From assembly GCF_057098645.1 (NCBI RefSeq), contig NZ_CM169472.1: DNA of 64,000 nt; one strand, given 5' to 3'. Positions within the stretch are counted from its first letter, which is position 1. Every line of letters begins with the position of its first letter. This document shows, in pieces, positions 39,001-42,000 of this stretch. Made by a program: the position numbers.

Positions 39001-42000
39001 ATACATTTACTCTAAAGAAACAGGTCGGATGCTGTGTAGTGACTGCGTGTTTGACATCATAAGATACAAGTATCTTGGATGTTCTGCCAGCATTAGCAAT
39101 ATAGGTGAAGTGTACGAAGGGAAAGATATAACTGATAGAGCAGAAAGTTGAAGCCCCAACTGCTGTAACAGTCAGGGCTTCGTTATCAACAAATCGGCTT
39201 AGGAAATATTGACATGAAAAGTATAGCAAAGGCACAAAACGATTTCACTATCTTCAAATTCGGCGACAGTGAAATCCGCGTCATCAACAAGTGCGGTGAG
39301 CCGTGGTTTGTAGCTAAAGATGTTTGTGATGCTTTAGCTTTGACTAACTCACGCAAGGCGCTTACTGCACTTGATGACGATGAAAAGGGAGTAACTTTAA
39401 GTTACACCCTTGGTGGTGAGCAGAATCTAAGCATTGTGAGCGAATCAGGTATGTATACATTGGTTCTGCGCTGCCGCGATGCAGTCAATAAAGGTTCAGT
39501 CCCGCACAAATTCCGCAAGTGGGTAACAGCAGAAGTTCTGCCTTCAATTCGCAAACATGGCGAGTATGTAAAAGGAAAGAAAACCACTGTTGAGGAAAGA
39601 ACACCGCTACGCGATGCAGTAAACATGCTGGTAGGAAAGAAAGGACTTCGCAATGACGATGCATACAATATGGTTCATCAGCGTTTTGGTATTGACAGCA
39701 TTGATGAGCTTTCAATTGAACAAATCCCGCTTGCCGTAGAGTACATCCACAGGGTAGTGCTTGAAGGTGAATTCATTGGCAAACAAGAGAAGAGCACCAA
39801 CGAGCTTTCCGCAAAAGAAGCAAACAGCCTTGTATGGCTATGGGATTATGCCAACCGCTCACAGGCATTATTCCGCGAACTGTATCCGGCGCTAAAACAA
39901 ATTCAATCGAACTATTCCGGCAGATGCTACGACTACGGTCATGAGTTCTCGTATGTTATTGGAATGGCGAGAGACGTTTTAATTAATCACACACGAGATG
40001 TTGATATCAATGAGCCAGACGGACCAACGAATCTTTCCGCATGGATGAGACTTAAGAATAAAGAATTACCTCCTTCACCGCATCACTACTAACAGATTGC
40101 CAACGAAATGACCCAGCTTCGGCTGGGTTTTTATCAGGAGTTCTCATGCTCTATAGCAATATATTGGCGCACGCCCGGCGATGTGCGCCAGCGGAGTCGT
40201 GCGGCTTCGTGGTGAGAACGCCGGAAGGGGGAGTGGTATATCCCTTGTGTGAATATTTCTGCAGAGCCGGAGGCGTATTTTCGTATCGCACCGGAAGACT
40301 GGCTGCGGGCAGAGATGCAGGGGGAGATTGTGGCACTGGTCCACAGTCATCCCGGTGGGCTGCCCTGGCTGAGCGAGGCTGACCGGCGGCTGCAGATAAA
40401 AAGCGCACTGCCCTGGTGGCTGGTCTGCCGGGGTGACATTCACAAATTCCGCTGTGTGCCACATCTGACAGGACGGCGCTTTGAGCACGGGGTGACGGAC
40501 TGTTACACGCTGTTCCGGGATGCTTATCATCTGGCGGGGACTGAAATGCCGGATTTTCATCGCGAGGATGACTGGTGGCGCAACGGTCAGAACCTGTACC
40601 TGGACAATATGGCGGTCACCGGCTTTTACCGGGTGCCCCTGTCCTCTGCACAGGCGGGCGATATTCTGCTGTGCTGCTTTGGTGCTTCGGTACCGAACCA
40701 TGCCGCCATTTACTGCGGCAACGGTGAGCTGCTTCACCATCTGCCTGAACAACTGAGTAAACGGGAGAGGTATTCCGAAAAATGGCAACGACGAACGCAT
40801 TCAGCCTGGCGTCACCGCCACTGGCACGTATCTGCCTTCACGGGGATTTACAACGATTTGGCCGCCGCCTCAGCCTGTATGTGAACACGGCAGCGGAAGC
40901 CATCCGTGCCCTGTCGATGCAGATGCCGGGATTCCGCCGTCAGATGAACGAAGGCTGGTACCAGATACGTATTGCCGGTGATGACACGGCACCGGAGGCG
41001 GTGTACGCCCGTCTTCACGAACAGCTGGGTGAGGGAACGGTCATCCACATTGTGCCGCGACTGGCCGGGGCCGGAAAGGGCGGACTGCAGATTGTGCTGG
41101 GGGCGGCAGCCATCGTGGGGTCGTTCTTCACGGCCGGGGCATCAATGGCGTTATGGGGTTCAGCCCTGGCAGCCGGTGGTTTTTCTGCCACCACGATGCT
41201 GTTTTCTCTGGGGGCCAGCATGATTCTGGGTGGTGTGGCTCAGATGCTGGCCCCGAAGGCTAAAGTACCGGAGTACAAAAGCACGGATAACGGCAGACAG
41301 AACACGTACTTTTCCTCGCTGGATAACATGATTGCCCAGGGGAACCCGATGCCGGTGCCTTACGGTGAAATGCTGGTTGGTTCACGACGGATATCCCAGG
41401 ACATCAGCACCCGTGATGAGGGCGGAGACGGGAAAGTGGTGGTTATCGGGCGGGGATGAAAATAAAAAAATCCCGCAGAGTTAGCGGAGCTGCGGGAGAG
41501 AACGATGAAGATTAACGTTATGGAGTTATTTTTCAGGCATCAAAAAAGTAATGCAGCGTCATTATTGCGGCTACAGGCAATTGCCGGAAATGTGAAGAGT
41601 TTCAGAAATTTTATTCCGTCATAACACAGGCACCCTCCGGGGTGCCTGTTGTTTTCTGGCATAAACAGATTCAGACATCAGACAGGAGAGGGGGACAGAG
41701 TGGGTAAAGGGGGCGGCAAGGCGCACACGCCGGTAGAGGCGAAGGATAATCTCAAATCCACGCAGATGATGAGTGTGATTGATGCGATTGGTGAGGGACC
41801 GATAGAAGGCCCGGTGAAGGGACTGCAGAGTATCCTGGTGAACAAAACCCCGCTGACGGACACGGACGGTAATCCCGTGATACACGGTGTGACTGCGGTC
41901 TGGCGTGCCGGGGAGCAGGAGCAGACACCACCGGAAGGCTTTGAGTCCTCCGGAGCTGAAACCGGACTGGGCGTGGAAGTGACGAAGGCAAAGCCGGTGA

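Follow-up and report, generated by a model that had tools for sequence, protein, structure and literature searches.

The closest described relatives of the locus analysed here are Hfq-bound small RNAs of O157 Sakai and of EPEC E2348/69. In O157 Sakai, the Hfq-CRAC peaks EcOnc22, EcOnc23 and EcOnc24 were assigned to the prophages Sp15, Sp14 and Sp11, respectively (Table S2 in Tree et al. 2014, Mol Cell, PMC4104026). EcOnc22 gave a northern band of ~85 nt and was destabilised in delta-hfq, and the published record of the three RNAs consists of the CRAC peak, the band size and the Hfq dependence only (Tree et al. 2014, PMC4104026). PasB of EPEC E2348/69 was reported by Pearl Mizrahi et al. (2021, Sci Adv, PMC8550237) and by Zhu, Shabalina and Storz (2026 preprint); it takes part in 37 interactions in RIL-seq, and its log2FC in delta-hfq is -6.8 (PMC8550237; 2026 preprint). 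It is an 83-nt RNA encoded on the minus strand of NC_011601 (1466343->1466261; probe AATCCCGCAGTGATCGCGGAGCT) and is absent from the published target-motif table. PasB reaches a higher level in overnight LB cultures than it does in DMEM, the opposite of what is seen for Spf. The morons of lambdoid phages are reportedly recognised, after Juhala et al. in 2000, as extra DNA that is inserted between genes which adjoin each other in related phages and is enclosed by a promoter and a terminator of its own.

The I–J spacer as an sRNA locus

All positions below refer to the window, i.e., the whole 64,000-nt stretch of contig NZ_CM169472.1 (NCBI RefSeq assembly GCF_057098645.1) that was analysed, and the features of the spacer between the tail genes I and J are collected in Table 1. 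The gap between the two genes is exactly 240 nt (41460..41699), in agreement with the annotation of a 99.6%-identical locus, as against 60 nt in lambda, so that ~180 nt of the window spacer are extra. Homology between this spacer and a class of ~335-nt spacers stops at ~41617, and the alignments thus place the true insert relative to lambda at the ~158-nt sRNA module. The remainder (41618..41699) is the counterpart of lambda's own gap, consisting of a sense hairpin followed by the ribosome-binding site of J.

Table 1 Features of the I–J spacer and its flanks (window coordinates)
Feature	Position	Strand	Remarks
I	40782..41459	+	Stop TGA 41457..41459
sRNA module, ~158 nt	41460..41617		Distant BLAST matches span query 1-178 = 41440..41617
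sRNA terminator U-tract UUUUUUUAUUU	41460..41470	-	U7; abuts stop codon of I
Predicted sRNA gene, EcOnc22/23/24-type allele of the apparent PasB family	41465..41554	-	~85-90 nt, antisense to tail operon
sRNA terminator hairpin	41471..41497	-	8-bp stem UCCCGCAG/CUGCGGGA, 11-nt loop
Single-stranded core AACUCC-N6-UUAAUCUUCA	41506..41528	-	63-variant alignment and conservation profile
-10 hexamer AATAAT	41561..41566	-	Aligns with TATAAT of most relatives
-35 hexamer, weak, TTCCGG	41589..41584	-	Window allele
CRP-like palindrome TGTGA-N6-TCAGA	41591..41606		Centre 32 bp upstream of -10 hexamer
Right hairpin, 10-bp stem, loop UCCG	41626..41649	+	Followed by UUGUUUUCU
U-rich tail UGUUUUCUG	41650..41658	+	T(T/C)GTTTT conserved
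Shine-Dalgarno region GGAGAGGGGGA and GTG of J	41685..41702	+	RefSeq annotation of identical loci agrees
J	41700..45176	+	GTG start; GGAGAGGGGGA upstream

The initial annotation had described a 240-nt segment with two hairpins and no convincing ORF, and had proposed a comparison with related I–J junctions. This observation was confirmed: both hairpins are real and are kept across the relatives, and no ORF is conserved in 41 distinct spacers. A consensus terminator scan flagged both hairpins, with 4 terminator-like sites in 1.5 kb against 1.2 ± 1.1 in shuffles. The two terminators had been called convergent; since the minus-strand one occupies the left end of the segment and the plus-strand one the right end, they in fact face outwards. 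The suggestion that the segment could encode a small RNA was correct: its minus strand carries the Hfq-bound sRNA that has been published as EcOnc22/23/24.

The evidence for this identity is as follows. The spacer of the window shares 99.6% identity with that of VT1-Sakai/Sp15, and all three peaks in the Sakai genome lie inside I–J spacers, antisense to J and at identical offsets. In the northern probe used for EcOnc22/23/24 (GGGAGAGAACGATGAAGATTAAC...), the first 23 nt coincide with plus-strand positions 41494..41516 of the window, with no mismatches and at no other place, and since the probe equals the plus strand, it detects a minus-strand RNA. The coordinates of Tree et al. refer to NC_002695.1; a shift of ~+137 to NC_002695.2, anchored on AsxR, AgvB, Sp4 = 0 and EcOnc21/42 homology, places the Hfq-CRAC peak at ~41539->41479 of the window. 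Uncorrected placement on NC_002695.2, which would put the peak antisense to the right hairpin, is wrong, and AgvB is not found at its listed place there. Owing to the exact probe match, the identity no longer depends on this correction. Judged by its sequence, the window carries another copy of the EcOnc22/23/24 allele, alike in I–J position and in the strand antisense to J and with nothing of substance different, and the RNA evidence comes from the 99.6%-identical locus.

PasB occupies the same place in E2348/69, between I (end 1466255) and J (start 1466496), with its mapped 3' end 6 nt from the I stop codon. It aligns with 70 nt of the window (41533->41464), including the terminator and the core. 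PasB and the window sRNA share the locus, the antisense strand, the terminator stem, the U-tract, the core, the position of the -10 hexamer and a similar size, but the two alleles have different 5' thirds, terminator loops and -35 regions, and the linker that precedes the terminator also differs, the PasB promoter being TTCACA-16-TATAAT in contrast to the weak -35 and AATAAT of the window. So, EcOnc22/23/24 and PasB are apparently divergent alleles of one family, in which case the EPEC RIL-seq and EHEC CRAC data could be pooled. Neither PasB source appears to draw this link: the note in Table S6 is blank, and the accessible text of the preprint does not contain the term "EcOnc".

Several other sRNAs were compared. 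AgvB and AsxR are likewise short Hfq-binding RNAs that are conserved in the 3' part and vary between alleles in the 5' part, but they are located at the PR' moron site, whereas the window sRNA lies in the tail operon and antisense to it. AgvB and AsxR (RF02702/RF02703; 51-60 nt, 3' GCCCGAACCCAYTCGGGC) were ruled out by the PR' location, their unrelated sequence and the lack of an Rfam match at E≤1. EcOnc08, EcOnc21 and EcOnc42, considered by size, are also located at PR', and EcOnc05, considered for the same reason, coincides with STnc100. The Rfam scan of 39000..46500 at E≤1 gave no match in the spacer and no sok, and there is no Rfam family for the sRNA. No convergent partner on the opposite strand is listed in the CRAC table.

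Organisation of the predicted sRNA gene

Read along the minus strand, the module would comprise the CRP-like site, the weak -35, the -10 AATAAT (41566..41561), the start, an RNA of ~90 nt and the terminator. The minus-strand terminator is Rho-independent and forms the 3' end of the sRNA, which is predicted to fall in the U-tract at ~41464..41470. The stem as scanned (minus strand, 41488->41472) is followed by ATTTTTTTAT, and the RNA fold of the hairpin has an energy of -13.2 kcal/mol (z = -3.66; 0 of 200 shuffles as good). In the 41 distinct spacers the stem is constant, although this is due in part to the search pattern, which fixed the stem except for an R/Y pair, while the loop is 10-16 nt long and comes in 15 versions. 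The compensatory combination CCCACAG/CUGUGGG is present in three sequences, and mixed combinations were found in none. The window thus has the Rho-independent terminator with a long U-tract, i.e., the Hfq-binding module, of the EcOnc22-24/PasB family.

At the other end, candidates for the 5' terminus extend over 41541..41554, and the start is predicted near 41552..41554. The promoter scan of the window spacer did not call the sRNA promoter, which has a weak -35, at threshold, while in a relative the same scan found TTCACA-16-TATAAT (11/12 consensus) aimed at the terminator. Alignment of 63 distinct variants showed the -10 hexamer, the CTGCGTTA start region and the core to be conserved. Read coverage puts the 5' end of PasB ~15 nt further downstream than the TATAAT-based prediction.

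The CRP-like palindrome matches TGTGA-N6-TCACA in 9 of 10 positions and is the sole match with ≤1 mismatch in the 64-kb window. Its spacing is constant in almost all of the aligned variants that have the promoter, with single-base changes being rare, and the sequence between it and the -10 hexamer is variable. The palindrome suggests that CRP may control the sRNA promoter, for which the higher PasB level in overnight LB, opposite to Spf, would be indirect support. CRP canonically binds at -41.5 in class II and at -61.5 in class I promoters; the centre of the present site is at ~-44.5 from the predicted start or at ~-59.5 from the coverage-based 5' end of PasB, i.e., off-register in both cases. 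Alternatively, conservation of the palindrome could reflect a recombination linker between mosaic modules.

The core is a candidate base-pairing (seed) region, as suggested by its conservation, within which GAAGAT was fixed by the search pattern and the flanking TTAA and GGAGTT were not. Matches to the seed complement elsewhere in the 64-kb window were no more frequent than expected by chance.

A coding role for the spacer was also considered, namely that a 39-codon plus-strand ORF (41505..41624) encodes a small protein or the toxin of a type I toxin-antitoxin pair, with the antisense RNA as its regulator. A Shine-Dalgarno-like GGGAGAG stands 5 nt upstream of its ATG, and the antisense sRNA covers the beginning of the ORF, an arrangement like that of hok/sok-type systems. 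However, the start codon is ACG in 13 of the 41 distinct spacers, indels move the first stop codon to anywhere from codon 13 to codon 41, and the peptide is not hydrophobic and so does not resemble hok/sok-like toxins; we regard this explanation as extremely unlikely. A 40-codon ORF on the minus strand (41540..41662) was rejected, having no Shine-Dalgarno sequence and no ATG in PasB-type spacers.

The module is additional DNA that separates two genes lying almost next to each other in lambda, and it has a putative promoter and a terminator of its own. Taken as a whole, the I–J spacer very probably consists of a self-contained minus-strand "sRNA moron" related to EcOnc22/23/24 and PasB, followed by the usual hairpin before J.

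The right hairpin and transcription of J

The right hairpin, scanned as a plus-strand 10-bp stem (41626..41649) followed by TGTTTTCTGG, has a fold energy of -26.6 kcal/mol (z = -5.95; 0 of 200 shuffles as good). The seventh pair of its stem is C-G in 29, U.G in 5 and U-A in 7 of the 41 distinct spacers, and there is one further U.G. Since the U.G intermediates can pair only in plus-strand RNA, the hairpin is a sense-strand element, and its stem and U-rich tail are those of a predicted intrinsic terminator on the plus strand.

The same observations could be read as the end of a second, plus-strand sRNA, which would form an overlapping sense/antisense pair with the first, because the hairpin is well formed and its wobble pattern points to function in plus-strand RNA. 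At the same time, the scan found no plus-strand promoter in the spacer, no Hfq peak is listed on the plus strand at Sp15, Sp14 or Sp11, and both lambda and the ~335-nt class carry unrelated hairpins at this place without sRNA-specific sequence, which fits an operon-level element. A second sRNA is accordingly considered very unlikely.

The lambda I–J gap has, as here, a GC-rich hairpin and a U-rich run on the sense strand just upstream of the J ribosome-binding site; its hairpin is unrelated in sequence to that of the window, and the hairpin of the ~335-nt class is a third unrelated one. It had been proposed that the insert forces J to rely on read-through or on its own promoter. The promoter scan found no promoter for J. 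Since lambda itself has a terminator-like hairpin there, read-through would be the ordinary solution and nothing special to the insert. Q-modified polymerase is known from lambda to read through terminators. By analogy, transcription of J probably relies on Q-antiterminated read-through: the hairpin with its tail (41626..41658) would serve as an insulator that stops stray rightward transcription before J in the lysogen, and during lytic growth Q-modified polymerase would pass it, so that J needs no promoter.

Distribution and possible roles of the sRNA

Megablast matched the spacer in 801 genomes, and sensitive blastn detected the left module in 1841 of 5426 complete E. coli genomes, about a third, and the median copy number was 2-3. 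A pattern search of IMG/VR gave at least 120 loci, and a pattern scan of genome contigs added, apart from what seem to be chance matches, only Escherichia albertii. Among the collected loci, the 240-nt form is more frequent than any other class. There are several divergent alleles of the left module, two of which are sometimes arranged in tandem, and the sRNA family is therefore much broader than close-BLAST surveys suggest. Two phage records annotate ORFs of 32-50 codons in the spacer; annotators should drop such calls.

In some relatives, a minus-strand sodC gene is located between the same left module and J, which makes this place a moron insertion site. This finding bears on the earlier proposal that the segment is the footprint of a lost moron, its terminators being left over from a protein gene such as sodC with nothing functional now. 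However, the sRNA body is still present in the sodC versions, which possess a terminator of their own, and sodC stands in place of the sRNA promoter, not in an empty cassette. Moreover, the 240-nt form has a conserved promoter, core and terminator and is the commonest class, and a transcript has been detected (EcOnc22, PasB). What is seen in about a third of the complete genomes is an intact sRNA cassette, and the relic explanation, which the published northern blots already contradict, is highly improbable.

On the basis of the literature on identical and homologous sequences, the sRNA would be made in the lysogen and stabilised by Hfq. The RIL-seq behaviour of PasB suggests that it most likely pairs with mRNAs in trans via the conserved core. 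An action mainly in cis would instead have the sRNA pair with the I–J junction of the late tail mRNA, leading to processing or to tuning of J dosage, or, conversely, the abundant late transcript would soak up the sRNA after induction. Antisense RNAs that trigger mRNA processing are known, as for lambda OOP and P22 sar. The gene lies wholly within the late operon, the sRNA is perfectly complementary to the junction, none of the relatives examined departs from the I–J position, not even those with strongly different alleles, and the Rfam scan found a sar/ant antisense pair nearby in the same tail operon. Against this, the Hfq-dependent PasB has its 37 trans partners in uninduced cells, where the late mRNA is scarce, and the sRNA overlaps no ribosome-binding site or coding sequence, that of J being ~150 nt off. 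We therefore consider a mainly cis-acting role unlikely.

The locus itself is already known, as a previously detected prophage sRNA that is multi-copy in EHEC. What is added here is the apparent link between EcOnc22-24 and the PasB family, the CRP-like site and the anatomy of the module. The conserved CRP-like site provides a testable regulatory hypothesis. A further proposal, considered unlikely, is that the PasB/EcOnc22 family is under catabolite (CRP) control and acts in trans via Hfq in the lysogen, where its alleles, which differ in their 5' and linker regions, may have different regulons, and that upon induction the Q-antiterminated tail transcript titrates or destroys the sRNA, or the sRNA directs cleavage between I and J. 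If true, these two lives of the sRNA would couple the lytic switch to a regulon of the lysogen or to J dosage.

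The gap between I and J

In the tail operon, I and J were separated by exactly 240 nt (41460..41699), close to the ~240-bp insert of the initial annotation, against 60 nt in lambda. A consensus scan for terminators and promoters in the 1.5 kb around this spacer, compared with shuffled sequence, gave four terminator-like sites, where shuffles gave 1.2 ± 1.1; it called no sigma-70-like promoter at its threshold. Both previously proposed hairpins, one on each strand, were called and folded far better than shuffles (left, −13.2 kcal/mol, z −3.66; right, −26.6 kcal/mol, z −5.95). Their description as convergent terminators was wrong, since each lies at one end of the gap and points out of it. 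By sequence comparison, what is actually inserted here with respect to lambda is a predicted sRNA module of ~158 nt, lying between the I stop codon and the hairpin upstream of J.

Features of the tail operon and the I-J gap
Feature	Position	Strand	Description
K	40249..40884		tail operon; lambda-like gene order and RefSeq annotation of a 99.6%-identical locus
I	40782..41459		tail operon; same basis as K
Left hairpin	stem 41488->41472	−	followed by ATTTTTTTAT; consensus scan
Right module	41618..41699		hairpin and J upstream region
Right hairpin	10-bp stem, 41626..41649	+	followed by TGTTTTCTGG; consensus scan
J	GTG 41700 to 45176	+	preceded by Shine-Dalgarno GGAGAGGGGGA
lom	45243..45842		tail operon, downstream of J

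In relatives gathered from annotated genomes and IMG/VR, the sRNA region takes 63 distinct forms and the ~240-nt spacer 41. The view that the gap holds no convincing ORF was confirmed by these relatives. The 39-codon plus-strand ORF (41505..41624), despite its tempting GGGAGAG, was rejected as a gene, its start being ACG in 13 of the 41 spacers and its first stop ranging from codon 13 to 41. The 40-codon minus-strand ORF, also unconserved, spans hairpin and promoter, has no Shine-Dalgarno sequence and, in PasB-type spacers, no ATG. The idea of a type I toxin-antitoxin pair was rejected. Short, mutually different “hypothetical proteins” are annotated in the spacers of KF030445 (1720a-02; locus L002, 577..729) and PV340549 (PhiR12_1; locus L003, 674..772); the comparison indicates that these are mis-calls over the sRNA gene.

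The minus-strand RNA, EcOnc22 and PasB

The proposal that the gap might encode a small RNA was correct, and this RNA is already known, having been detected experimentally as EcOnc22 (a near-identical copy) and PasB (a homologous allele). EcOnc22 (prophage Sp15), EcOnc23 (Sp14) and EcOnc24 (Sp11) are mutually homologous Hfq-CRAC peaks of E. coli O157 Sakai, and EcOnc22 gave a northern band of ~85 nt and was destabilised without Hfq (Tree et al. 2014, PMC4104026); a 2021 review gives their target as unknown. All three peaks lie in Sakai I-J spacers, antisense to J and equally far from its start. In the northern probe “EcOnc22/23/24” (GGGAGAGAACGATGAAGATTAAC...), the first 23 nt match 41494..41516 of the plus strand exactly and uniquely, and therefore the detected RNA is that of the minus strand. 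This match is independent of, and more direct than, placement of the peak by coordinate shift.

The published peak coordinates refer to NC_002695.1 and were compared on NC_002695.2, where AgvB is absent from its published position, after measuring the shift. It was +136..139 at 1.27 Mb (AsxR anchor), +139..146 at 1.94 Mb (AgvB1 anchor) and ~+136 for Sp15 (from EcOnc21/EcOnc42 homology); for Sp4 it was 0, the only value that places EcOnc05 and EcOnc08 on STnc100 and the two terminators. The shifted EcOnc22 peak corresponds to ~41539->41479 on the minus strand, directly 5' of the left hairpin and extending into it. In Table S2 of Tree et al. (2014), coordinates are offset by ~+137..142 bp versus NC_002695.2 beyond a point between 1.18 and 1.27 Mb, and by 0 at Sp4; reuse of the table on the current Sakai record would misplace peaks.

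PasB, an 83-nt minus-strand sRNA of EPEC E2348/69 (NC_011601 1466343->1466261; probe AATCCCGCAGTGATCGCGGAGCT; Pearl Mizrahi et al. 2021, PMC8550237, Table S6), had 37 RIL-seq interactions, was the “second RNA” in chimeras and showed a log2 6.8 decrease in delta-hfq (PMC8550237). It is located between I (end 1466255) and J (start 1466496), and the probe has the plus-strand sequence of the left hairpin of PasB-type spacers. PasB can be aligned to 41533->41464, with the terminator, the U-tract and the core AACUCC...AUCUUCAU in common. On this homology, PasB and EcOnc22–24 are considered alleles of one family, a link absent from Table S6 of PMC8550237 (note field blank) and from a 2026 preprint on distribution (no “EcOnc”); this sRNA is not represented by a family in Rfam 15.

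Structure and spread of the sRNA gene

In the sRNA sense, the order begins with a conserved block AATAAAATTTCTGAAnnTCTTCACATTT, then ~18 bases that vary, a −10 hexamer (TATAAT in most relatives; AATAAT in the window, 41566..41561) and a conserved CTGCGTTA (window, CTGCATTA), which is likely the transcription start region. Next come a U-run, a stretch that varies, the core AAYUCCUUA / UUAAUCUUC(A/G)U, which is conserved, a linker that is not, and the terminator. In a PasB-type relative, the scan called a TTCACA-16-TATAAT promoter (11/12 consensus) directed at the terminator; the −35 of the window allele, TTCCGG, is poor. A start predicted at 41554..41552, 7–9 nt from the −10, would yield a ~90-nt RNA, near the ~85-nt band. 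The coverage-based 5' end of PasB corresponds to ~41541, which leaves an uncertainty of roughly a dozen bases at the 5' end. The left terminator combines a constant stem with a loop in 15 versions of 10–16 nt, and a compensatory CCCACAG/CUGUGGG stem occurred in three sequences with no mixed combinations, the informative parts being the R/Y pair and the loop, as the search pattern fixed the remainder of the stem.

The AATAAAATTTCTGAAnnTCTTCACATTT block includes TGTGA-N6-TCAGA (41591..41606), the sole match to the CRP core with at most one mismatch in the 64-kb window; one such match is expected by chance, and its weight therefore rests on position and conservation. Rare single-base changes aside, the site is kept in nearly all aligned promoter-bearing variants while the intervening bases vary, and its centre stands a constant 32 bp from the −10; the predicted centre at ~−44.5 is off the canonical registers. 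PasB is more abundant in LB cultures grown overnight than in DMEM during exponential growth, the reverse of CRP-repressed Spf; this pattern would fit CRP activation and stationary-phase effects equally well. The boundary at which right-hand modules are exchanged falls on this block too, so the block might be a recombination linker. CRP control of the sRNA is considered possible, though somewhat short of probable.

By megablast, the spacer was found in 801 of 5426 complete E. coli genomes (median 3, maximum 9 copies per genome), and sensitive blastn detected some version in 1841 of them; Stx phages, including VT1-Sakai, CP-1639 and BP-4795, also carry it. Most distant matches cover query positions 1–178 (41440..41617) only, so the left two-thirds form a module spread more widely than the right third. 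With one genome per bacterial species scanned, the core-plus-terminator pattern occurred only in Escherichia albertii, apparent chance matches aside, in agreement with the 2026 preprint, which confines Pas sRNAs to Escherichia and Shigella.

Transcription of J and the I-J moron site

The seventh pair of the right hairpin is C-G in 29, U-A in 7 and U.G in 5 of the 41 distinct spacers, and one further sequence has U.G at the loop-proximal pair. These U.G intermediates pair only in plus-strand RNA, the minus strand giving C.A mismatches, and T(T/C)GTTTT is conserved after the hairpin; both features argue that it is a sense-strand intrinsic terminator. The lambda gap (NC_001416; L167, 746..805) has a strong GC-rich sense-strand hairpin followed by UUUUGUCAUUU, and relatives with a ~335-nt spacer (L009, 880..960) have a third, with a U-rich tail, before the J ribosome-binding site, each unrelated in sequence to that of the window. 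Because three unrelated hairpins share this place, a hairpin there is apparently a recurrent, convergent operon element. In lambda it is well established that late transcription crosses such terminators, RNA polymerase being modified by Q at PR'. Of the two needs earlier ascribed to J, read-through or its own promoter, Q-modified read-through would make the latter unnecessary, and no promoter for J was found at the threshold of the consensus scan.

In some E. coli prophages (L012, 1012..1539; L061), a minus-strand sodC (Cu/Zn superoxide dismutase), followed by a terminator of its own, separates J from the sRNA body. The latter is retained there together with the sRNA terminator, and the −10 and CRP-like site are replaced, so this sRNA is either dead or produced by sodC read-through. 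Two different alleles of the module stand in tandem between I and J in relatives L067, L070, L071, L084 (673 nt apart) and L050 (229 nt). The gap is thus rightly called a moron site, yet the cassette of the window is intact and not the footprint of a lost moron.

Elsewhere in the operon, the minus strand encodes at 39146..39212 an antisense RNA of the P22 sar type (Rfam RF00262, 66.7 bits, E 1.5e-12), which adjoins a plus-strand 292-aa Ant/Bro-like ORF (39214..40092), the pair (39146..40092) being inserted between L and K, which are adjacent in Sakai Sp15. The ORF after lom (45901..47211) encodes a protein that resembles side tail fibres and contains long collagen-type G-X-Y repeats, and a weak Rfam “Trp_leader” match (45815..45897) was dismissed as the lom terminator.

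The favoured mechanism is that the prophage expresses an Hfq-dependent sRNA which would act in trans by base-pairing, and to this a cis-antisense or sponge relation with the late tail transcript may be added.
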